Below are positions 14,201 to 48,009 of a stretch of DNA of 64,000 bases, one piece after another. The stretch is from the NCBI GenBank assembly GCA_040772545.1, contig JAXGXY010000002.1, positions 82,841 to 146,840 of the forward strand. Direction: 5' to 3'. This stretch comes from Christensenellales bacterium (lineage in GTDB: Bacteria > Bacillota > Clostridia > Christensenellales > UBA1431). Under the pieces are notes generated by a model. The model was given only the letters and a program-made list of their open reading frames with translations. It made no database searches and was not told the origin of the DNA. Made by a program: the position numbers and the translations under genes. How positions within the stretch are numbered: position 1 is the stretch's first letter; each line of letters opens with the position of its first letter.

Positions 14201-15223
14201 GTGAATGAAAAGATGAGCATTACGACGGAGGAGCTCGCGGCGTTTGTGAAAAAGGCGGCGGCGGAGAAATGGGGATACGTCTACGGCGGACAGGGACAAA
14301 TATATACCCCCGAACTCGCGAAAAAATGGGCGGGTCAGGGGCGCGCGGGAAAAAGCGCCGACTATTTCCTCAACGATTGCAGGCGATGGTTCGGTAAAGT
14401 GGTGGTAGACTGCAGCGGCCTGCTGGTCGAAGCCTTCCGAAGCAGGGACAGGGGTTATTACGACAGGACGGCCAACACGTTCAGGGCCCAGGCGGTGGAG
14501 CGCGGCAGCATAAATGATATGCCGGGCATGGCGGGATTGGGCGTTTGGCGAAGCGGCCATATCGGCATCTATATCGGGGCGGACAAGGTCATCGAAGCGG
14601 GCGGGACGAGAGTGGGCGTAGTGGAAACCCCGTTATCGTCTCCCGCCACGGGGAAGGCGTGGAAGGAATGGCTCCATTTGAGAGGCGTGATCTGCGACTG
14701 CCCGCCGGGAGAGCACGAAGTCCCGGAAGACGCGTTTAACGTGAACCGGCTGCTCGAACTGACAAGCCCGATGATGTCCGGCGACGACGTGCGCGACGTG
14801 CAGGAAGAGCTCATGGCCCGGAAATACAGCGTCGGCAGCGCGGGCGCGGACGGCGTATACGGTCCGGATACAGCACAGGCCGTGAAACAGTTCCAGCGGG
14901 ACAAGGGGCTGCGGGCGGACGGCGTTGTCGGCCCGAAAACGACGACGGCCCTGGGAGGCCTGTGGGAGGACGCAGAGGCGGCTTTCGCCGTCGCAAGGCT
15001 GCTAAAACTGACGAGCCCGATGATGTCCGGCGACGACGTGCAGGCCGTGCAGGAGGCGTTGACGGCTCAGGATTACGATGTGGGCGTGAACGGGGCAGAC
15101 GGCGTATACGGCCCGGACACCGCAAAGGCCGTGCAGCGGTTCCAGCGGGACGAGGGGCTGCGGGCGGACGGCATCGTCGGCCCGGAAACGACGCGAGCCC
15201 TGGGAGGGCAGTGGAGCGGGTGA
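14201..15223 (+). CDS. NlpC/P60 peptidoglycan hydrolase with two PG_binding_1 domains
   Basis: 'WGYVYGGQG...VVDCSGL...GHIGIYIG' is the NlpC/P60 Cys-His core. Then two copies of 'LTSPMMSGDDV..VQE.L......GADGVYGPDTA.AV..FQRD.GLRADG.VGP.T'. Start is 14201 or 14213. Confidence 0.85.
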   Translation: MNEKMSITTEELAAFVKKAAAEKWGYVYGGQGQIYTPELAKKWAGQGRAGKSADYFLNDCRRWFGKVVVDCSGLLVEAFRSRDRGYYDRTANTFRAQAVERGSINDMPGMAGLGVWRSGHIGIYIGADKVIEAGGTRVGVVETPLSSPATGKAWKEWLHLRGVICDCPPGEHEVPEDAFNVNRLLELTSPMMSGDDVRDVQEELMARKYSVGSAGADGVYGPDTAQAVKQFQRDKGLRADGVVGPKTTTALGGLWEDAEAAFAVARLLKLTSPMMSGDDVQAVQEALTAQDYDVGVNGADGVYGPDTAKAVQRFQRDEGLRADGIVGPETTRALGGQWSG

Positions 15224-15296: not shown

Positions 15297-15480
15297 GTCG
15301 CGGCGGGCTGGCCCGAAGCCGTACCCGGGAGAAGCCCCGCAATGCGAAGTTTTTGGGAAAGGGAGGAGCGACTTGGCGAGCGGGATTTCACTCTTGCGCG
15401 GAAGCGGGCGGTATGAGGTTTCGCGACGACGCGTGCGGAGTTGGCCCCGGTAAGGCGGCATGGGCGCCGGATCGGCACAG

Positions 15481-22497: not shown

Positions 22498-22809
22498 ATG
22501 AAAGACGGCAAATGCGTAGATTACTGCAAAGTGAATGATATATGCAACGACGAACATTGTCACCATGATTGCAAAAACGAAATTCTTTGTTGTGAGGCAA
22601 AGGTATGCAGATGCGGCGCAGAGCTTTTTTGCACGGTTGCTGAAAGGTTGTCGTGCGAAATAAAGATGGCGAGGAGTTCGCGGGAGCTGGCGTGCTTTAT
22701 CGAATTGAGCAACAGCTTTTTGATCGCCAGTGCGCAGAAAGAAAATGCGATCAGCAGCGTTTTATGTTGTCTCGGCGTGAATGAAGAAAAGATGCTTAAG
22801 TGTCCATAA
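22498..22809 (+). CDS. hypothetical cysteine-rich small protein
   Basis: 103-aa ORF in a visibly AT-richer patch. RBS AAAGGGAG. The N-terminal ~45 aa carry ~11 Cys ('CVDYCKVNDICNDEHCHHDCKNEILCCEAKVCRCGAELFC'). A hairpin terminator follows. Confidence 0.6.
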   Translation: MKDGKCVDYCKVNDICNDEHCHHDCKNEILCCEAKVCRCGAELFCTVAERLSCEIKMARSSRELACFIELSNSFLIASAQKENAISSVLCCLGVNEEKMLKCP

Positions 22810-22826
22810 GCGTTATTATTTAATAA

Positions 22827-22848
22827 GAAGGGAGCAAATGCTCCCTTC
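22827..22848 (+). terminator. hairpin terminator of the Cys-rich gene
   Basis: GAAGGGAGCaaatGCTCCCTTC. Confidence 0.6.
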
Positions 22849-22850
22849 TA

Positions 22851-22979
22851 GGCCGTCGACAAACCCTTCGGGATTTGTCGACGGTTTTCTGTGTGGAAAA
22901 AATGACTTTTTTTCCGCCAATCTGACGCACATGTCGTCAGATTGGATTGAAGGCGGGGGATTGCATCCCCACACCCCCT
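22851..22979 (+). repeat. family-1 modular four-hairpin element, copy 1
   Basis: GTCGACAAAcccttcgggaTTTGTCGAC; GGAAAAAAtgacTTTTTTTCC; CAATCTGACGcacatgtCGTCAGATTG; then GGATTGAAGG and GGGGGattgcatCCCCacaCCCCC. Near-identical to 36136-36266. Confidence 0.85.
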
Positions 22980-23265
22980 GCCAGTCCGGGGAGCATATCC
23001 TCCTTCTTTCCTGTTTTTCTTCGGAGGACCCTTGCCCGTCAGCCCGCCCATAATGTCCGCGCCTATGCACAAGGTGCCGTGTACGGTTTGCCGGGCAGGC
23101 CATATTCGATCGGTTTTCCTGCAGCATTTTGGTTGGCCGCACAAAAAGGTTCTTCTTTAACTCGCAGAACGCTTCATACTACCGGACGACTGGCTCCGGA
23201 TAATCGGCTGGAACCAGAGCCTGTCCGCGTTTCTTTTTCTTTATGCGATATTGTTTTGCGGGTGT

Positions 23266-23294
23266 TGACAAAGGACAAAGTAATTGGTAAGATA
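23266..23294 (+). promoter_or_regulatory. rRNA operon promoter candidate
   Basis: TTGACA (23266-23271), 17 nt spacer, TAAGAT (23289-23294), ~180 nt upstream of 16S. Confidence 0.5.
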
Positions 23295-23474: not shown

Positions 23475-25016
<1,542 letters not shown>

Positions 25017-25207
25017 GGGAGTAAGGATTCGAGAGAATCGTACTTCATAGGTCGATAGTGTTTCTGGCAAGCGACATCGGCGAAGGGGTACTGTATGGTT
25101 TTGAGGCCGCTGGGCGTCTTAATGTAATTTAACTATGTTAAGATGGCATTCCTGCCTCAACGGCAGGGAGCGGGCTTCACTCTTGGACGTAAGCACGTCC
25201 CCGGGGT

Positions 25208-25327
25208 ATGGGGGCGGAGGCTCCCATGTTCAGCGACATGTGCGGCGAATCGGTGAAGAAACGGCGCCGGGAGCGGCGTTTCAACCGACCGGGAACCAGA
25301 CAAATCCCGAAGGGATTTGCTCTGGCC
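25208..25327 (-). repeat. family-1 element, degenerate copy in the 16S-23S spacer (inverted orientation)
   Basis: Starts GGGGTATGGGGG. CAGCGACATGTGCGGCG retains the conserved ACATGT loop. Also GAAACGGCGCcgggagCGGCGTTTC, AACCGACC, and CAGACAAATCCCgaaGGGATTTGCTCTG. Confidence 0.65.
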
Positions 25328-25335
25328 CAGCAGAC

Positions 25336-25390
25336 GGGGGTGTAGCTCAGCTGGGAGAGCACCTGCCTTGCACGCAGGGGGTCAGCGGTT
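25336..25390 (+). pseudogene. tRNA-Ala (UGC), 5' two-thirds only; T-arm and 3' acceptor strand not found
   Basis: GGGGGTGTAGCTCAGCTGGGAGAGCACCTGCCTTGCACGCAGGGGGTCAGCGGTTC is canonical up to T-loop 'TTC'. It then runs into TCGTCGGAGCAAACTACGCTCC (family-2 repeat). No ...CCGCTCACCCCCACCA follows. Confidence 0.6.
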
Positions 25391-25520
25391 CTCGTCGGAG
25401 CAAACTACGCTCCACTCCGAACCCCCTAAGCGCTTTGCGCGGCGGGGATTCGTCGCAACGCTCCGTTGCTCCTCCTTATCCCCACAAAGCTTGCGCTTTG
25501 CGGGGAGGTACTCGGGAAGG
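25391..25520 (+). repeat. family-2 spacer repeat, copy a
   Basis: CGTCGGAGCAAACTACGCTCC..CCCCTAAGCGCTTTGCGCGGCGGGGATTCGTCGC..CGCTCCGTTGCTCCTCC..CACAAAGCTTGCGCTTTGCGGGG. Related to 25605-25715 and, inverted, to 29115-29300. Confidence 0.7.
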
Positions 25521-25527
25521 GCTGTGT

Positions 25528-25604
<77 letters not shown>

Positions 25605-25715
25605 CCGCGTCGGAGCAAACTACGCTCTGCTCCCGCGTCGGAGCGGACTGCGCTTCGCTCGCTTACGGGCAAAGCCCGAAAGCTCGCGCGCTCCGTCGCT
25701 CCTCCTTTAACGTGA
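25605..25715 (+). repeat. family-2 spacer repeat, copy b (first module duplicated)
   Basis: CCGCGTCGGAGCAAACTACGCTCTGCTC followed by CCGCGTCGGAGCGGACTGCGCTTCGCTC, then ...CGCTCCGTCGCTCCTCCTTTAAC. Confidence 0.65.
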
Positions 25716-25764
25716 GAGGCGCTGGGGCCTCACCTTCTGGAAGGCAGAACGTTCCAGGGGGTAT

Positions 25765-25889
25765 GGGGGATCGCAATCCCCCATGTCAATCCAATCTGGC
25801 GACATGCGCGTCAGATTGGGGAAGAAATGTTGCGAAGTAACATTTCAACCGACCAGGAATCCGCATAGGGCCGAAGGCCCGAATGCGGC
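25765..25889 (-). repeat. family-1 element, copy in the 16S-23S spacer (inverted orientation)
   Basis: GGGGGATCGCAATCCCCC, TCAATCC, CAATCTGGCGACATGCGCGTCAGATTG, GAAATGTTGCGAAGTAACATTTC, AACCGACC. This is the reverse complement of the module order in copies 1-3. Confidence 0.75.
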
Positions 25890-26041: not shown

Positions 26042-28963
<2,922 letters not shown>

Positions 28964-29114
28964 ACGATTTTCAGGCGCTGCGTTAAGGCGCAAACCTTAC
29001 GTTTCTCGCACAAACGGCGTTATGCGGTTTTGAGGGTGTTTGGTCCTACGGCAATTAATATGCCGGGATGACGCTCGAATACGAGCAGGCACCATTACCC
29101 GCGCCAAAATGGAG

Positions 29115-29300
29115 GCGCAGCGGAGCGTAGTTTGCTACGACGCAGTAGCCCTACCTTCAAAATCCCCGCTAAAACCCTCCCCGGGAAAACCATGCAAAGC
29201 GTAGCTTTGCATGGAAGAGGAGGAGCAACGGAGCGGGGCGAAGAATCCCCGATCGCGAAGCGTAAAGGGGATTCAGAGCAAAGCGAAGTTTGCTACGACG
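29115..29300 (-). repeat. family-2 repeat material in the 23S-5S spacer (inverted)
   Basis: GGAGCGTAGTTTGCTACGACG; CCATGCAAAGCGTAGCTTTGCATGG; GGAGGAGCAACGGAGCG; GGGGCGAAGAATCCCCGATCGCGAAGCGTAAAGGGG. These are reverse complements of the copy-a modules. Confidence 0.65.
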
Positions 29301-29305
29301 AAGTT

Positions 29306-34579: not shown

Positions 34580-34670
34580 AAAAGCGCACAGGATGCCCCG
34601 TTAAGGCTTAGCGCATGCGGTTATATTGTATACAATTATACAGGGATACACAAAGAAAAGGGTGGGGATC

Positions 34671-36071
34671 ATGATCGAATTCAATCCGAAAACGAATCTT
34701 CTCGAGGAAAACGTGTACGAGTACGAATTACAGGACGTGGAAGAACCCGAGCTTTTCAGGGAGTTCTTCGACTACGGTTCGATCCCCAAAACGGCGTTCA
34801 ACAAGCGCTCCGTGCCCATGGAATGCCCGGAGGAAATCTGGATCACGGACACGACCTTCCGCGACGGGCAGCAGTCCTGCTCGCCTTTCACGCCCGTCCA
34901 GATCGCGCGGCTCTACGAGATGATGCATCGCCTGGGCGGCCCGAAGGGCCTGATCCGCCAATGCGAGTTCTTCATCTATTCCGAAAAGGACCGCGAAGCC
35001 GTGCGCCGCTGCCAGGACTTCGGGTTCGAGTTCCCCCAGATCACCAGCTGGATACGGGCGCACGAAAAGGATTTCCGTCTGGTGAGGGAAATGGGCCTGA
35101 AGGAAACGGGAATCCTGGTGAGCTGCTCGGATTACCATATATTCAAGAAGATGAACCTCACGCGCGCCAAGGCGATGGACAAATACCTCGGGATCGTAAA
35201 GGGGGCGCTGGATAACGGGATCTGCCCGCGCTGCCATTTCGAGGACATCACGAGGGCCGACTTTTACGGCTTCGTGGTCCCCTTCGCACGGGCGCTGATG
35301 GAGCTGTCCAAGCAAAGCGGCATACCGGTCAAGATACGCGCCTGCGACACGCTGGGGTACGGCGTGACCTATCCCGGCGTCTCCCTTCCGCGCTGTGTAC
35401 AGGGGATCGTCTACGGGCTCAGGCGGTTTGCCGAGGTGCCCAGCCGGCAGCTCGAATGGCACGGCCACAACGACTTCTACAAGGTGGTTACCAACGCGGC
35501 CACGGCCTGGCTCTACGGCAGTTCCGCCGTGAACTGCGCGCTGCTCGGGATCGGCGAGCGCACCGGCAACTGCCCGCTCGAGGCGATGGCCATCGAGTAC
35601 GCTTCCCTCCGGGGGACCAACGACGGCATGGACTATTCCGTCATCACGGAGATCGCCGAGTTCTTCGAATACGAACTGGGGTACGAAATCCCGCCGCGCA
35701 CACCGTTCGTGGGGCGCAGCTTCAACACGACGCGCGCGGGCATCCACGCCGACGGCCTTTTAAAGGACGAGGAGATCTACAACATCTTCGACACCGCGAA
35801 GATCCTCAACCGCCCCGCAGGCGTGGCCGTGGACTCGCATTCCGGGCTGGCCGGCATCGCGCACTGGATGAACGGCTACTTCGACCTTAGGGGGGAGCAT
35901 GCGATGGACAAGCGCTCGGAGATGGTGCAGAGGATAAAGGCGCTGGTCGACGCGGAGTACGAAGGCGGACGGACCACGGCGATGGGCGACATGGAACTCG
36001 AGGAGATGGTGCGCAACACCGACGTCGAGGCGTACATCATGCTCTGCCACCACAAGAACAAGACGGCGTGA
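34671..36071 (+). CDS. HMGL-like aldolase: homocitrate / Re-citrate synthase-like (isopropylmalate synthase superfamily)
   Basis: ATG 34671 after GGGTGGGGA. 'ITDTTFRDGQQS' is the DRE-TIM metallolyase motif; also 'WHGHNDFY', 'GIGERTGNCPLE'. No LeuA C-terminal regulatory domain recognised. Confidence 0.7.
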   Translation: MIEFNPKTNLLEENVYEYELQDVEEPELFREFFDYGSIPKTAFNKRSVPMECPEEIWITDTTFRDGQQSCSPFTPVQIARLYEMMHRLGGPKGLIRQCEFFIYSEKDREAVRRCQDFGFEFPQITSWIRAHEKDFRLVREMGLKETGILVSCSDYHIFKKMNLTRAKAMDKYLGIVKGALDNGICPRCHFEDITRADFYGFVVPFARALMELSKQSGIPVKIRACDTLGYGVTYPGVSLPRCVQGIVYGLRRFAEVPSRQLEWHGHNDFYKVVTNAATAWLYGSSAVNCALLGIGERTGNCPLEAMAIEYASLRGTNDGMDYSVITEIAEFFEYELGYEIPPRTPFVGRSFNTTRAGIHADGLLKDEEIYNIFDTAKILNRPAGVAVDSHSGLAGIAHWMNGYFDLRGEHAMDKRSEMVQRIKALVDAEYEGGRTTAMGDMELEEMVRNTDVEAYIMLCHHKNKTA

Positions 36072-36110: not shown

Positions 36111-36135
36111 GGGGCGCCCGTTCAGGGGCGCTTTT
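36111..36135 (+). terminator. terminator after the citrate-synthase-like gene (left copy of a duplicated hairpin)
   Basis: GGGGCGCCCgttcaGGGGCGCTTTT. Confidence 0.65.
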
Positions 36136-36266
36136 GGCCGTCGACAAACCCTTCGGGATTTGTCGACGGTTTTCCGTGTGGTTAATATGCCGCTTTTAGG
36201 CGGCATTTTTCAATCCAATCTGACGCACATGTCGTCAGATTGGATTGAAAGTGGGGGATTGGCATC
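36136..36266 (+). repeat. family-1 modular four-hairpin element, copy 2
   Basis: Hairpins 1 and 3 are identical to copy 1. Hairpin 2 is replaced by ATATGCCGCttttaGGCGGCATTTTT. Followed by GGATTGAAAGTGGGGG. Confidence 0.85.
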
Positions 36267-36291
36267 TTGTTGTAGGCTTTTTTGACAGTCT

Positions 36292-36316
36292 GGGGCGCCC
36301 GTTCGGGGGCGCCTTT
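36292..36316 (+). terminator. right copy of the duplicated terminator hairpin
   Basis: GGGGCGCCCgttcGGGGGCGCCTTTATT, near-identical to 36111-36131. Confidence 0.55.
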
Positions 36317-40794: not shown

Positions 40795-41175
40795 TCAGCA
40801 GCGTTTTCTCCTTCTTATCCCGGCGTCCTGGACGATGTTGAGCGCCTCGCCGAAGCGCTGGAAATGCACGACCTCTCGCTCCCTGAGGAACAGCAGCGGA
40901 TTGCGCACGTCCGGGTCGGCGGTAAGGCGGATCAGGTGCTCGTACGTCGCGCGCGCCTTCTGCTCTGCGGCCATGTCCTCGGTAAGGTCGGCGACCGGGT
41001 CGCCGGTGCAGGCGACGTAGGAAGCCGTGAAAGGGACGCCGTTCGGGTCGCAGGGGAAGAGCCCGAAGTCGTGCTCGGTGTAGAACCCTTCCATCCCCGA
41101 GGCGCGGATGCCCGCGACCGACGCGCCGCGCATGCACTGGTGGATCATCGTCCCTATCATCTCCCAGTGGGCCAA
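40795..41175 (-). CDS. cotJC: spore coat protein CotJC (manganese-catalase family), 3' segment (codons 66-191) of a split gene
   Basis: 'LAHWEMIGTMIHQ...NGVPFTASYVACTGDPVADLTEDMAAEQKARATYEHLI...FLREREVVHFQRF' aligns with B. subtilis CotJC residues ~66-189 as I recall them. No start codon or RBS of its own. Confidence 0.85.
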   Translation of the reverse strand: MAHWEMIGTMIHQCMRGASVAGIRASGMEGFYTEHDFGLFPCDPNGVPFTASYVACTGDPVADLTEDMAAEQKARATYEHLIRLTADPDVRNPLLFLREREVVHFQRFGEALNIVQDAGIRRRKRC

Positions 41176-42776
41176 TTCTTCGGTGCCGCGTTATTGTCGG
41201 TGAGGATGCGGTCCGGGAGCCTGGGGTACAGCACGAGTTCGAACGCGCCCTTAAATACGCGCGCCCGCCCGTTGCCGCCGCGCACGGCCTTATAATAGTC
41301 TATCCGTTCGACGAGGCTCCTGAGCAGGCTGTTTTTCGACATGACGGAGGGCGCGAGCGCATACGCGGCGGCGATGTCTTCGGCGCGCGCGCGCCGGTCC
41401 CGCAGCGCTGTTTCGCGCGCCCGCGCGGCCTGCAGCTGGCGGCGGAGTTCTGTTTCCTGGCGCCGGAGTTCCTCCGTTTGCTCAAGCAGCGCTTCTTTGC
41501 GTTTTTCAAACGTTTCGGCGTCGTATACGCCCTGTTCGAGCAGGTCGTGCGCGGCGGCGCGCTGCGCCTCGAGGCGCGCGAGGCCTTCCCCGATGCGCCT
41601 GAGCGCCTGCGCGGCCGCCGCTTCGACCGGCGCAGGGCCGGTATCGCCTTTAGCTCCGGCGCGTAGCCTGTACCCCCGCAGCCATGTTTTAAGCGAGCGC
41701 AGCACGGCCGATTCGACGAGGCGCAGTTCCGAGCTCACGTTCGCGCAGGCGGCGTCCGGGCAGACGAGCGCGTCCGGCGCGTTTTTGTACGGCTTCCTGC
41801 ACATGCGCCCGCCGCAGACCCCGCAATAAACGAGGCCGGCGAGCGGGTTTTTCAGGGACCCGCCGCGCGTGCCCCGCGGATGCCCGCCGGACAGGTACTC
41901 CTGCGCCCGGTCCCAGGCTTCGCGGCCGATCAGGGGCGGGTGGAGGCCGTCCACCACGATGCAGCCGCCGTTGCGGGGCCGGCTGACCGCCGCGCCGCCG
42001 TCTTTTGCTCTCTTTACCGCCGGGCGGCCCATGTAGCGTATCTTCCCGGCGTAGACGGGGTTTTTGAGGAGCGGCTGGAGCATGGACGGCGTCCAGCGCG
42101 CGGCCCGCCGCGGCCTGATGCCCAGGTCGTTGAGCCTGCGGGCGAGGCGGGCGACGCCCAGCCGCCCTTCGGCCCCGTCGCCCTTTGTATACAGCTCGAA
42201 GATGAGCTTCACGGCCGGGGCGGCGGCCGGGTCCGGGGCGAGCGTGTAGCCTTTCTGGCCGTCGAGCTTCACGCGGACGTAGCCGAACGGCGCGACGCTG
42301 CCGGTGTACTTCCCCTCCAGGGCGGAGGCGCGCCGGCCGCGCTGGAGCCGGCGGTTGATCGCCCTGTACTCGCGGCGGCTCATGAACAGGCCGAACTCGA
42401 AATACTCCTCGTCGAACTCGTCGTCGGGGTCGTAGGTCTTCGCGGGCGTGACGATCTTCGTGTGGGAGAGGGAGAACGCGCGCGCGATGACGCCCTGGTC
42501 GATCGTGTCGCCGCGCGCGAGACGCTCGATCTCCATCACGAGCACGCCGTCCCACAGGCCGCCTTCCACCTCGGAAAGGAGCCGACGCATCACGGGCCGC
42601 GCTGCGATGGTCTCGCCGGAGACGATCTCGCGGTAGGTTTTGGACACGGGCAACCCCATGCGTTCGGCGAGGGAAACGAGCGCGGCCCGGTGGCGCGCGA
42701 GGGTCTCGCCTTCGCCGCGCGCCTCGGCCTCGGCGTCCGCCCTGGATTTTCGAAGGTAGATGCAGTAGTTTGCCAT
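41157..42776 (-). CDS. large serine recombinase, SprA-like
   Basis: ATG 42776. 'YLRKSRADAE..TL..H...L', 'EIVSGETIAARP', 'VLVMEIERLARGD', 'IVTPAKTYDP', 'FEFGLFMSRREY', Zn-ribbon 'CGVCGGRMCRK...CPDAAC', long coiled coil. 539 aa. The stop codon lies beyond the element edge. The 100-codon N-terminal extension in the ORF track covers a repeat and is rejected. Confidence 0.88.
   Translation of the reverse strand: MANYCIYLRKSRADAEAEARGEGETLARHRAALVSLAERMGLPVSKTYREIVSGETIAARPVMRRLLSEVEGGLWDGVLVMEIERLARGDTIDQGVIARAFSLSHTKIVTPAKTYDPDDEFDEEYFEFGLFMSRREYRAINRRLQRGRRASALEGKYTGSVAPFGYVRVKLDGQKGYTLAPDPAAAPAVKLIFELYTKGDGAEGRLGVARLARRLNDLGIRPRRAARWTPSMLQPLLKNPVYAGKIRYMGRPAVKRAKDGGAAVSRPRNGGCIVVDGLHPPLIGREAWDRAQEYLSGGHPRGTRGGSLKNPLAGLVYCGVCGGRMCRKPYKNAPDALVCPDAACANVSSELRLVESAVLRSLKTWLRGYRLRAGAKGDTGPAPVEAAAAQALRRIGEGLARLEAQRAAAHDLLEQGVYDAETFEKRKEALLEQTEELRRQETELRRQLQAARARETALRDRRARAEDIAAAYALAPSVMSKNSLLRSLVERIDYYKAVRGGNGRARVFKGAFELVLYPRLPDRILTDNNAAPKNWPTGR
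41160..41208. other. left recombination junction (attL-type: B arm + core + P' arm)
   Basis: ...CCCAGTGGGCCAA|TTCTTC|GGTGCCGCGTTATTGTCGGTGAGGAT. The core TTCTTCGGTGCC (41176-41187) matches 48148-48159 at 11/12 positions. Confidence 0.7.
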
Positions 42777-42843
42777 CGTTTCACCGCCCGCTAAGCTTTG
42801 TATATTTGTATTTCGCGGGGGCGGCGGATATGGCGGGTACGAT

Positions 42844-42980
42844 GCCGACAAACCTGTGGTTTGTCGGCAATTTTCCGGCAGGTTGAAACGCGCTTTAAGG
42901 CGCGTTTCTTTGCCGATCCTGACGCACATGTCACCAGGATCGGATTGAAGCTCAGGGGGCTTCGGCCCCCCTGAACCCCC
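42844..42980 (+). repeat. family-1 modular four-hairpin element, copy 3 (divergent, with compensatory stem changes)
   Basis: GCCGACAAACCtgtGGTTTGTCGGC; GAAACGCGCtttaaGGCGCGTTTC; CGATCCTGacgcacatgtcacCAGGATCG; GGATTGAAGC; GGGGGCttcgGCCCCCCTGAACCCCC. Confidence 0.8.
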
Positions 42981-43078
42981 AGGGGAAGTTACCGTTTGCC
43001 ATGTTGCCCGGGGTGAAAGGCTGACGATTACCGGTCGGACACATTTGAATAAACCTTCCGTTGCATAAAAACGCACAC

Positions 43079-47409: not shown

Positions 47410-48009
47410 ATGAAAAGACCGGGATACAGGCTGCCCGCGATATACTTATCGATCGCGTTCTGCCTGTTAACCATAGGGATGACGGAGCAGGCGGGCGCGC
47501 GGGGACAGGCGGCGGCGGTGTTCAACCACGTGAGCGGAATTTTGGGCAGCGTTATCGAAACGCCGGAGCCGACGGCGACGCCGGCGTCCGTACGGACGCA
47601 AACGCCGAAGACGGCGAAGCCGACGCCCGTACGGACGCAAACGCCCAAGCAGGCGCCCGCGCAGGCATATTCGAAGAAAGACCTCGACCTGCTCGCCAGG
47701 GTCGTATACGCCGAGGCGGGGAGCGACTGGTGCAGCGACGAAATGCAGCTTCTCGTCGCGAACGTCGTGATCAACCGCATGCGCGACCGGCGGTTCCCGG
47801 ACACGCTCCGGGGCGTGGTCTACCAGCGGGGGCAGTACGCCTGCGCATACAAGCTGGGGCGCGTGAAGCCCAACGCGCGCGCGGTGAAAAACGCGAAGCG
47901 TGTGCTGGACGGGGAGCGGTTCTGCCCGGCCAAAGTGGTTTTCCAGAGCGAGTTCAGGCAGGGGAAGGGCCTGTGGAAGAAGGTCGGGAATCAGTACTTT
48001 TGTTATTGA
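47410..48009 (+). CDS. cell wall hydrolase, SleB/CwlJ (Hydrolase_2) family, secreted
   Basis: RBS GGACAGGAGG. Signal-like 'LPAIYLSIAFCLLTIGM'. Pro/Thr linker with a 'VRTQTPK' repeat. 'LLARVVYAEAGSDWCSDEMQLLVANVVINRMRDRRFPDTLRGVVYQRGQYACAY' is the SleB catalytic-domain pattern. Confidence 0.8.
   Translation: MKRPGYRLPAIYLSIAFCLLTIGMTEQAGARGQAAAVFNHVSGILGSVIETPEPTATPASVRTQTPKTAKPTPVRTQTPKQAPAQAYSKKDLDLLARVVYAEAGSDWCSDEMQLLVANVVINRMRDRRFPDTLRGVVYQRGQYACAYKLGRVKPNARAVKNAKRVLDGERFCPAKVVFQSEFRQGKGLWKKVGNQYFCY

Follow-up and report, generated by a model that had tools for sequence, protein, structure and literature searches.

A four-hairpin repeat of Clostridia as a probable IS1182-type MITE at terminator hairpins

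The 64-kb stretch of Christensenellales DNA analyzed here (hereafter, the window) contains five copies of a short hairpin-rich repeat, Family-1, which is very probably an IS1182-type MITE that would be moved in trans by an IS1182-family transposase and land on terminator hairpins. The assignment draws on the ends of the element, on the hairpin duplications that flank it, on the same ends and duplications in full-length IS1182-family elements, and on the family of the transposase that these elements encode. In what follows, Family-1 is treated as mobile DNA of an ordinary kind, which it most likely is, marked by a neat signature of insertion, and not as a new RNA.

Family-1 copies in the window

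A first-pass annotation of the window had described a modular repeat of four hairpins present five times, and all five copies lie where it had placed them. A profile HMM (nhmmer), trained solely on 21 copies from other genomes and then run on the window, recovers exactly these five: copy 2 at 36136-36263 (+, E 7e-30), copy 1 at 22851-22978 (+, E 6e-25), copy 4 at 25753-25862 (-, E 3e-18), copy 3 at 42849-42989 (+, E 1e-17), and copy 5 at 25200-25320 (-, E 1e-13). Beyond these copies and a reverse-strand self-match (36207-36249, E 7e-5) that copy 2 owes to its palindromic hairpin 3, nothing in the window scores better than E ~0.2. The copies, their parts, and their flanking stem-loops are located as follows:

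22827..22849, plus strand: upstream target stem-loop duplicate of copy 1, AGAAGGGAGCAAATGCTCCCTTCT; terminator-like hairpin after the ORF at 22498-22809
22850..22987, plus strand: Family-1 copy 1, four hairpins; right end decayed, ...CCAGTCC to 22987
22853-22884, plus strand: copy 1 hairpin 1, the left terminal repeat folded onto its own inverted copy
22895-22915, plus strand: copy 1 hairpin 2, a weak A/T stem
22917-22945, plus strand: copy 1 hairpin 3, with CACATGT loop
22944-22953, plus strand: copy 1 linker, GGATTGAAGG
22956-22970, plus strand: copy 1 hairpin 4
22988..23007, plus strand: downstream stem-loop duplicate of copy 1, GGGGAGCATATCCTCCTTCT plus T-rich tail; partly decayed
25190..25329, minus strand: Family-1 copy 5, in the 16S-23S spacer directly after 16S; antisense to rRNA transcription; most decayed
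25745..25889, minus strand: Family-1 copy 4, antisense to rRNA transcription; located in the 16S-23S spacer, past tRNA-Ile and before 23S
36111..36135, plus strand: upstream stem-loop duplicate of copy 2, GGGGCGCCCGTTCAGGGGCGCTTTT; after the HMGL-like gene at 34626-36071
36136..36291, plus strand: Family-1 copy 2, best-preserved copy of the window; 5' end GGCCGTCGACAAACCC, 3' end GGCTTTTTTGACAGTCT
36292..36316, plus strand: downstream stem-loop duplicate of copy 2, GGGGCGCCCGTTCGGGGGCGCCTTT; 23/25 bp identical to 36111-36135
42839..43003, plus strand: Family-1 copy 3, divergent subfamily; all four stems altered yet maintained

The modules follow the order given by the first-pass annotation, with hairpin 1, hairpin 2 and its T-rich tail, hairpin 3 with its CACATGT loop, the linker GGATTGAA, and a G5/C5 hairpin, and the compensatory changes that it quoted for copy 3 are present in the sequence. 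While this order is shared, the set of modules is not uniformly complete: hairpin 2 is weak in copy 1, hairpin 4 of copy 2 has lost its 3' arm, and copy 5 is without GGATTGAA and without one arm (3') of hairpin 3. The 5' ends are intact in copies 1 and 2, and the 3' ends are decayed (GGCTTTTTTGACAGTCT in copy 2). Because the five copies are only 70-89% alike, have decayed right ends, and lack a partner transposase within the 64 kb, they are probably old and probably immobile.

What had been missed is that terminator hairpins are duplicated on either side of the repeat and that its termini form an inverted repeat. Copies 1 and 2 keep whole-hairpin duplications, whereas none is recognizable around copies 3-5. 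The stem-loop at 22827..22849, whose T-run is severed by the insertion of copy 1, is directly repeated at 22988-23007 (GGGAGCAAATGCTCCCTTCT vs GGGAGCATATCCTCCTTCT), and this downstream duplicate is scored as terminator-like (22988-23005). The interval 22827-23006, which the first-pass annotation had delimited, corresponds to hairpin duplication, element, and hairpin duplication.

Ends, target duplications, and full-length relatives

A search with the core pattern retrieved 29 genuine genome loci, and Family-1 copies are present in ~12 Clostridia/Bacillota MAGs, including Oscillospiraceae. Matches to the core pattern in Rhizobiales (L007, L019, and L028) were set aside as conserved coding sequence, searches of viral contigs with the 3' end and with the core pattern gave chance matches in coding DNA or nothing, and PLSDB plasmids gave no blastn match to the Family-1 consensus. 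The element is 140-170 bp in size, contains no transposase ORF, and is multicopy and dispersed: the window has five copies and MAG OH_HFB_474 at least 14, many of them at contig ends. The two ends common to MAG copies, 5' CAGGCCATCGACAAAGTCC and 3' GGGTTTGTCGACACTCT, form mutual inverted repeats around TCGACAAA. Other short elements with a different interior carry the same 3' end, which would be expected of an enzyme that recognizes the termini.

Direct repeats of a complete, site-specific stem-loop, 18-31 bp in length, bracket 13 of the 25 copies with testable flanks. The length of the duplication follows the size of the hairpin, as in OH_HFB_474, where it amounts to 20, 21, 22, and 25 bp around near-identical copies. 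The presence of such copies at different hairpins in one MAG is an indirect pointer to mobility, which we infer from structure. Most neighboring genes have their 3' end facing the element (16/25 upstream and 18/27 downstream, in a crude ORF-based analysis), as expected for terminator targets. In the window, the three intergenic copies are oriented as the upstream gene and both copies of the rRNA operon are antisense (n=5); overall, the copies tend to lie at gene 3' ends and follow no strict rule of orientation.

A metagenome scan with the Family-1 3' end identified ~35 loci with a 1.6-kb element, which starts with CAGAGTGTCGAAAAAGTCC and ends with ...GGGGTTTGTCGACACTCTGA. Its ends agree with those of Family-1 at 17/17 positions on the right (GGGTTTGTCGACACTCT vs IRR) and 14/19 on the left (CAGGCCATCGACAAAGTCC vs IRL CAGAGTGTCGAAAAAGTCC). 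The 502-aa ORF of this element (L035:5087-6595) matches NCBIfam model NF033551, "IS1182 family transposase," with 400.6 bits at a cut-off of 270 bits and contains the Pfam domains DUF772 and DDE_Tnp_1_6; its closest plasmid relatives are annotated "IS1182 family transposase," and no NCBIfam IS1202 match was obtained in the partner transposase. Across the relatives, the transposases fall into several subfamilies, with identity down to 35-45%.

Full-length copies are flanked by perfect whole-stem-loop duplications of 25, 25, ~29, and 31 bp, within an overall range of 20-31 bp. A whole-hairpin duplication, of 20 bp, likewise flanks a 40%-identical relative on a viral contig; the left end of this relative, CAGACTGTCGACAAAGTCCTACGGACTTGTCGGC, clearly corresponds to hairpin 1 of Family-1. 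Hairpin 1 matches the fold-back left end of other IS1182 members (L126/L129/L145), and ISEfa7 and a Thermocaproicibacter IS1182 element have a left end of the same type; for the targets of ISEfa7, no useful description was found in the literature. The flanks of these elements show what appears to be duplication of the entire target stem-loop by an IS1182 subgroup, with a length apparently set by the hairpin. The first-pass annotation had named a "REP/MITE-like element" as one option, and the terminal inverted repeats (TIRs), target site duplications (TSDs), and full-length IS1182-family relatives elsewhere bear out the MITE half of that term. Its statement that the window holds no transposase is accurate for the IS1182 type (tblastn) but overlooked a large serine recombinase gene on the minus strand (41157-42776), with copy 3 lying 68 nt upstream of the start of this opposite-strand gene.

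IS1272/TnSha1, of the IS1182 family, target terminator hairpins by structure and have no sequence specificity (PMC4923244; PMC5678879), and a cruciform attacked at its 5' feet has been proposed as the route by which the whole stem-loop would be duplicated (PMC5678879). In a mechanism along these lines, the transposase would recognize a left end, CAG-NNNN-TCGACAAAG, folded back on its own inverted copy as hairpin 1, and a right end consisting of a small hairpin followed by TTTGTCGACACTCT(GA). Insertion would take place where DNA is able to form an extruded stem-loop, which in practice means the intrinsic terminators that follow genes at their 3' ends, and strand transfers at the two feet of the palindrome, followed by gap repair, would duplicate the entire stem-loop on either side. 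The upstream copy of the hairpin would lose its T-run, the downstream copy would retain the original one, and the element would supply a terminator-like hairpin of its own (hairpin 2, stem plus T-run). Mobilization in trans, cutting at the cruciform feet, and terminator function of hairpin 2 would fit this scheme, and hairpins 3 and 4 are possibly protein-binding sites or retained palindromes. The whole-hairpin mode of duplication rests on the present flank analysis together with the published model (PMC5678879).

Several observations weigh against an IS1182-type MITE. A tblastn search finds no IS1182 transposase within the window or the 8-kb regions that surround MAG copies, the interior (hairpins 2-4) has no blastn similarity to any of the fetched full-length copies, three window copies have no recognizable flanking duplication, and published IS1272 insertions delete part of the hairpin instead of duplicating it. 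The interior could have a function of its own: Family-1 would then be a selected mobile terminator/insulator cassette, coupled to an IS1182 subgroup that measures its target by structure. In this joint reading, which we consider unlikely, hairpin 2 would restore termination after the U-tract of the target terminator is clipped; hairpin 3, with its almost invariant GACG-CACATGT-CGTC top and GGATTGAA tail, would be recognized in a sequence-specific manner by an RNA/DNA-binding protein of the host or of Cas type; and DDE strand transfer at the two feet of the extruded cruciform would yield the variable 18-31-bp whole-palindrome duplications. If true, a Cas1-like outcome would have been reached via a different enzyme.

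Covariation and alternative readings

Covariation was assessed on 26 copies (window and other genomes) with a structure of 45 pairs. Paired cells amount to 88.9%, vs 34-50% with partners slid, and two-sided changes occur in 27/45 pairs, a value reached by 0/500 shuffles (12.7 +/- 2.2); the covariation of the four stems is thereby borne out as real. RNAalifold independently places compensatory changes in 18/28 pairs. Among the stem mismatches, G.T (35) and A.C (43) are nearly balanced over 1101 cells, with no strand asymmetry. Because of this balance, nothing favors an RNA fold over a DNA palindrome, and the hairpins are equally well explained by palindromes at the DNA level. The first-pass annotation had invoked selection "on a folded RNA or ssDNA" and suggested an Rfam search, in which no family matched the repeat: at gathering score, the whole window yields rRNAs and tRNAs alone, and at E<=10, the region 22780-23060 yields just weak chance matches to the flanking hairpin and no CRISPR-DR model.

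These results bear directly on whether Family-1 could be a gene for, or a cis part of, a structured RNA (an sRNA, 3'-UTR element, or terminator cassette), in which case the covariation would result from selection for the fold of the RNA, and the ends that look like those of a transposon would be secondary. The four stems do covary strongly, hairpin 2 of copy 2 with its T-run (36187-36206) is scored as an intrinsic terminator, and orientation in the window would fit selection against a sense terminator in the rRNA operon, on five copies. A strand-specific RNA fold should, however, favor G.U, which is not what the mismatches show, and Rfam returns no match to the repeat at either threshold; the small structured RNA put forward by the first-pass annotation is left without support. 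No promoter-like site lies inside copies 1 or 3, and the one in copy 2 scores just 9/12 and is on the minus strand (36213-36184). Hairpin 1 can be explained as two inverted copies of the transposase-binding end that is also found on full-length IS, and TIRs with site-specific hairpin duplications require a DNA insertion mechanism regardless, so that we regard an RNA origin of the pattern as very unlikely. Conserved hairpins with compensatory changes, in intergenic and multicopy elements, would also suit a REP/REPIN or IS200/IS605-type palindrome element moved as ssDNA by a Y1 (HUH) transposase. Such elements have no terminal inverted repeats and do not duplicate their target on insertion. Family-1 has TIRs as well as target duplications, in common with IS1182 elements and their DDE transposase, and no TnpA/RAYT gene was seen beside the copies (IS1182 tblastn; Pfam on ~12 window ORFs). 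Movement by a Y1 enzyme is highly improbable, and the REP half of the earlier term, with its RAYT and IS200/605 mechanisms, does not fit.

The stem-loop followed by ATTGAAAG is presumably similar to the 3' end that many type I/III repeats have, and hairpin 3 plus GGATTGAAAG might accordingly be seen as a solitary CRISPR-repeat-like unit (a Cas6/Cas5d substrate, decoy, or regulator) or the element as a product of integration by a Cas1-type integrase. Insertion that duplicates a whole palindrome is formally like the repeat duplication at spacer integration. Each element nevertheless has a single unit, with no array in the 29 genuine loci or the window, no Rfam CRISPR-DR model is matched at E<=10, no cas gene is present among the window ORFs examined, and the enzyme encoded by the full-length elements that share these ends and this duplication is a DDE transposase and not Cas1. 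A CRISPR connection is exceedingly improbable, and the resemblance, which the first-pass annotation had itself allowed "may be coincidence," is best treated so. Nor is there much to commend rRNA operon processing stems, formed by copy 1 pairing with the inverted copies 4/5, as the explanation for the copies near rRNA genes. The segments are 77% complementary over 35-62 nt, but copy 1 precedes the promoter-like site of the operon (23265-23293) and follows the terminator of the preceding ORF, which puts it probably outside the precursor. The 23S gene is flanked by other segments with better complementarity, and rRNA genes have no connection with copies 2 and 3 or with any MAG copy, which makes a role in processing extremely unlikely.

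Comparison with known elements and significance

As an IS1182-type MITE, Family-1 is most readily compared with IS1272/TnSha1, with which, as with ISEfa7, it shares its terminal type (a CAG..TGTCGACAAAGTCC-like left end with fold-back). Like IS1272/TnSha1, it has stem-loop/terminator targets without primary-sequence consensus (PMC4923244, PMC5678879). The full-length relatives are bona fide carriers of an IS1182 transposase, whereas Family-1 itself has no transposase. On insertion, IS1272/TnSha1 remove a portion of the target hairpin without any duplication, in contrast to Family-1 and its full-length relatives, which duplicate the whole hairpin, an outcome corresponding to "pathway b" of the published model, proposed but not observed (PMC5678879). 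An IS1182-derived MITE is already known: MITEPye1 of Paracoccus yeei is, like Family-1, short, non-autonomous, and intergenic, with stem-loops and IS1182-like TIRs (PMC11578231). It differs in its 4-bp direct repeats and its occurrence in Alphaproteobacteria, compared with the 18-31-bp duplications, four/five-hairpin interior, and clostridial hosts of Family-1.

Long target duplications, of 24-29 bp, are likewise a feature of the IS1202 group (ISNCY/IS1202 family), which we considered for this reason. Ends in this family begin with TGT, and how long the duplication is depends on the subgroup (bioRxiv 10.1101/2022.12.17.520857). Family-1 has CAG ends, a duplication that varies with the hairpin within one genome, and an IS1182-type partner, and the IS1202 family was rejected on the basis of its ends, the behavior of the TSD, and the transposase family found.

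REP/BIME/REPIN and pneumococcal BOX/RUP-type repeats resemble Family-1 in being short, intergenic, modular, hairpin-rich, and multicopy. REPINs have neither TIRs nor TSDs and depend on RAYT, and no transposase is known for BOX; Family-1 differs from both in its TIRs, TSDs, and identifiable autonomous relative. Integration by Cas1-Cas2 or casposons also duplicates a palindromic target of ~20-30 bp. This is an analogy alone, as Family-1 has no Cas1, belongs with a DDE class of enzyme, and has a different target at each site.

For annotation, the 150-bp Family-1 blocks account for several features of clostridial sequences, namely intergenic repeats rich in hairpins, breaks in MAG contigs, and terminators that occur twice, and annotating the blocks as RNA genes or CRISPR-like units should be avoided. 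Transposon biology gains from Family-1 and its full-length relatives a large natural data set with dozens of independent insertions. Duplication of a whole stem-loop has been modeled before, with no documented case in the literature accessible to us, and with this data set the idea of structure-measured (cruciform-foot) strand transfer can be tested directly. As for the host, it has tolerated two copies in the spacer of an rRNA operon, both of them antisense.

Family-1 copies and their flanking hairpins

Family-1, the four-hairpin repeat of the window, most likely behaves as an IS1182-family MITE. All five copies proposed in the first-pass annotation are present, and their common module order is borne out by a MAFFT alignment. 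A profile HMM built only from copies in other genomes matches exactly these five sites (E 7e-30 to 1e-13), with one extra match, where hairpin 3 of copy 2, being palindromic, hits itself on the reverse strand (E 7e-5); beyond these, nothing in the window scores better than E ~0.2.

Family-1 copies and rRNA operon of the window
22850-22987 (+): Family-1 copy 1, flanked by hairpin copies at 22827-22849 and 22988-23007
36136-36291 (+): Family-1 copy 2, between two hairpin copies, 23/25 bp identical
~42839-43003 (+): Family-1 copy 3, divergent subfamily
16S-23S spacer: Family-1 copies 4 and 5, inverted, both antisense to rRNA transcription
22161: tRNA-Val
23475-25013: 16S
25528: tRNA-Ile
26042-28964: 23S
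29306: 5S
29431: tRNA-Asn

The target of copy 1 is the terminator-like hairpin of a small ORF (22498-22809), one copy of which stands on each side, upstream of the rRNA operon and of the operon's promoter-like site (23265-23293). The hairpin duplicated around copy 2 lies 3' of an HMGL-like gene, and hairpin 4 of this element no longer has its 3' arm. Copy 3 has no recognisable duplication in its flanks, and copy 5 has only half of hairpin 3 and no GGATTGAA linker. With mutual similarities of 70-89%, decayed right ends and no IS1182 transposase within the 64-kb window, the window copies look old and are probably immobile.

A scan of one genome per species with the conserved core GACGCRCATGTC N6-8 TYGGATTGA returned 32 loci, 29 of them in Bacillota, Clostridia or Oscillospiraceae MAGs, with several loci in many of the MAGs and many loci at contig ends; the remaining three are chance matches in Rhizobiales coding sequence.

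Layout of well-preserved copies
5' end and hairpin 1: CAGGCCATCGACAAAGTCC-tgcg-GGACTTTATCGATGG
Hairpin 2, with T-run: GGTTAAAATGCCGC-taatg-GCGGCATTTTTT
Hairpin 3: CCGATTTGACG-cacatgt-CGTCAAATCGG
Linker: ATTGAAAG
Hairpin 4: GTGGGGGATTTGCGAATCCCCCAC
3' end: small CCCCC..GGGGG hairpin, then GTTTGTCGACACTCT

Around TCGACAAA, the 5' and 3' ends form an inverted repeat. Among the 25 copies with enough flank to test, 13 have a complete stem-loop, different at each site, directly repeated on both sides.

Length of the duplication around Family-1 (L-numbers, loci from other genomes, contigs or plasmids)
18 bp: L017
20 bp: L018, L025, window copy 1
21 bp: L002, L021
22 bp: L004, L011
25 bp: L024, window copy 2
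29-31 bp: L012, L029, L031

The direct repeat corresponds to the stem-loop to within one base. The upstream hairpin copy is cut 1-3 bases past the stem and hence loses its T-run, which the downstream copy retains. Because near-identical elements within a single MAG are flanked by duplications that vary in size (20, 21, 22 and 25 bp), their length must be set by the hairpin rather than by a fixed stagger. The two hairpin copies at a site differ mostly in their loops, which fits later drift with the stems under selection. Gene 3' ends tend to be favoured, with the upstream gene pointing towards the element in 16/25 cases and the downstream gene in 18/27. At L023 and L026, both from MAG OH_HFB_474, the hairpins flanking the L023 copy have only their outer stems in common, and the one downstream recurs unchanged upstream of the L026 copy, a pattern more suggestive of chimeric assembly across the repeat than of biology.

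Full-length relatives and other elements with the same ends

Scanning metagenome contigs with the Family-1 3' end gave 88 hits, about half of them chance matches in coding DNA. Some 35 of the 88 mark the right end of a single type of element, which reads ...CAGAACAAACCCCAGTTTTGCTTGATGCAGAACTGGGGTTTGTCGACACTCTGA and has a stem-loop after it; an ORF of 502 aa is located upstream. This ORF scores 400.6 bits against NCBIfam NF033551 'IS1182 family transposase' (cut-off 270) and also matches Pfam DUF772 and DDE_Tnp_1_6. Complete full-length copies are ~1.6 kb long, begin with CAGAGTGTCGAAAAAGTCC and have a whole stem-loop perfectly repeated, in direct orientation, on both sides.

Length of the duplication around full-length elements
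25 bp: L047, L050
26 bp: longer variant, L035/L080
~29 bp: L095
31 bp: L115

Family-1 agrees with the full-length IS at 14/19 positions of the left end and 17/17 of the right end, and this right end is also found on elements with a transposase of only 35% identity (L119). Searching viral contigs with the degenerate left end yielded further IS1182-family elements (40-81% identity), each with a stem-loop directly 5'. One of these loci, L126, has the 20-bp stem-loop AGGGTGCTTCAAGCACCCAT on both sides and a left end, CAGACTGTCGACAAAGTCCTACGGACTTGTCGGC, that is a clear counterpart of Family-1 hairpin 1. The closest annotated plasmid relatives, an 'IS1182 family transposase' of Thermocaproicibacter melissae (Oscillospiraceae; 62.7% identity) and ISEfa7 of Enterococcus faecium (43.6%), both have a left end of this type, including the fold-back.

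The 3' end GGTTTG(T/C)CGATACTCTGA is also common to other short elements with unrelated interiors, so it is the termini that define the mobile unit.

Other elements with the same ends
L026:4560-4730 (+) and L021:5290-5130 (-): short non-coding elements, different interior, same 3' end, flanking hairpins
L069:5534-5592, L088:2391-2449, L111:3097-3155, L112:2978-3036: 62-bp perfect palindromes

In L021, such an element stands in tandem with a Family-1 copy and the middle hairpin is common to both (hairpin-element-hairpin-element-hairpin). The palindromes contain nothing but the right end of the IS and an inverted copy of it (CAGAGTGTCGACAAACCCCAGTTCTGC..GCAGAACTGGGGTTTGTCGACACTCTG), their flanks show no obvious hairpin duplication, and they may be minimal MITEs or remnants of insertion or excision. 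L035:4851-5015, like the same locus in L080, belongs to a 1775-bp variant of the full-length IS whose left end is longer by ~160 bases, which fall within the hairpin duplication; on the opposite strand these read as a hairpin, then TGATTGAATC, terminating in ...GTTTCAACACGCTGA. By global alignment (score 92.5; shuffles 74.4 +/- 6.2), this piece is weakly Family-1-like.

Proposed mechanism and alternative readings

Terminal inverted repeats and site-specific duplications of whole hairpins are established, both on full-length elements as well, as are IS1182-type DDE transposases in the latter. In the mechanism we propose, the transposase would bind two ends, each a TCGACAAA box beside a hairpin, and join them to an extruded palindrome at its two feet; the palindrome would then be duplicated as the two single-stranded gaps are filled by repair. 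Hairpin 2 resembles an intrinsic terminator, and that of window copy 2 scored as one; with the upstream terminator copy deprived of its U-tract, this hairpin would prevent read-through. Hairpin 3 hardly varies at its top (GACG-CACATGT-CGTC), a feature suggestive of recognition by sequence.

The compensatory changes quoted in the first-pass annotation are present in the sequence. We tested a 45-pair, four-hairpin structure on 26 copies, five from the window and 21 from other genomes: 88.9% of the cells are paired, compared with 34-50% when partners are slid by 1-3 columns, and 27 pairs show changes on both sides, against 12.7 +/- 2.2 in shuffles (0/500 reach 27). Independently, RNAalifold found double changes in 18/28 predicted pairs. 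If a top-strand RNA were under selection, G·U should be favoured, yet G·T and A·C mismatches are equally common in the stems (35 and 43), so palindromes maintained at the DNA level, as cruciforms, as binding sites on both arms or by templated correction within palindromes, explain the pattern at least as well. If hairpin 1 is the left end plus its own inverted copy, as it would seem, it comprises two copies of one binding site, and 'compensatory' changes there can be concerted change. This balance, and the lack of a match to any Rfam family, leave the small structured RNA hoped for at first unsupported. The REP/MITE-like option held in its MITE half, given the inverted repeats, whole-hairpin duplications and IS1182-family full-length relatives; terminal inverted repeats and target-site duplications rule out a REP/RAYT or IS200/605-type element. 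Nor is the resemblance of hairpin 3 to a CRISPR repeat upheld, since Family-1 is solitary, never occurs in arrays in the window or the 29 MAG loci and matches no repeat model. As regards this resemblance, the adjacency of the closest annotated IS1182 relative to a type III-A cas10 gene on the 19-kb T. melissae plasmid pTVN (NZ_CP101828.1; L124) is taken as coincidence. IS1202-family elements also make long duplications, but their ends begin TGT and the transposase found here belongs to another family, which excludes that relationship.

Direct repeats of IS1182-family members in ISfinder range from 0 to 60 bp, and some members target palindromes. The staphylococcal elements IS1272 and TnSha1, of this family, insert into hairpins without primary-sequence specificity, most of them confirmed terminators, and partly delete the hairpin without making a duplication (PMC4923244; PMC5678879), whereas Family-1 duplicates it whole. 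This is the outcome that a published model predicts for attack at the 5' feet of an extruded cruciform (PMC5678879), and it is seen for Family-1 and its full-length relatives alike. An IS1182-derived MITE with 4-bp repeats, MITEPye1, has been described (PMC11578231). The kind of element is therefore already known; as far as could be found, Family-1 itself is new, as is a clear natural record of variable-length duplication of whole terminators. Family-1 is useful for annotation and for studying target choice by DDE transposases.

Other features of the window

The earlier statement that the window holds no transposase stands for the IS1182 transposase; a large serine recombinase gene, which the first-pass annotation does not report, is present.

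Additional features
41157-42776 (-): large serine recombinase gene (Pfam Resolvase, Recombinase, Zn_ribbon_recom)
25335-25392 (+): tRNA-Ala(TGC)-like sequence (GGGGGTGTAGCTCAGCTGGGAGAGCACCTGCCTTGCACGCAGGGGGTCAGCGGTTC) that stops in the T-arm and passes into a repeat (TCGTCGGAGCAAACTACGCTCC...)
25393-25491 and 25604-25661 (+): second repeat family (CGTCGGAGCAAACTACGCTCC...), 3' of both the tRNA-Ala-like stub and tRNA-Ile; partial match at 15359-15389
14748-15214: 218-nt unit tandemly duplicated, 80% identity, spacing 249
47571-47648: two tandem 39-nt units, 90% identity (GACGGCGACGCCGGCGTCCGTACGGACGCAAACGCCGAA)

Copy 3 lies 68 nt upstream of the serine recombinase gene, whose mechanical ORF extends through it to 43076; the gene itself probably begins with the ATG at 42776. 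The gene may mark the edge of an integrated element. To our knowledge, large serine recombinases leave no duplications of the Family-1 type, and we thus do not link the gene to Family-1. The tRNA-Ala-like sequence, called by neither ARAGORN nor Rfam, looks like a truncated tRNA-Ala gene of the 16S-23S spacer, before tRNA-Ile. The second repeat family is 84-89% complementary over 27-49 nt to segments 3' of 23S (29106-29304, +) and probably represents halves of a 23S processing helix, one of them duplicated. The tandem 39-nt units probably lie within a coding region.
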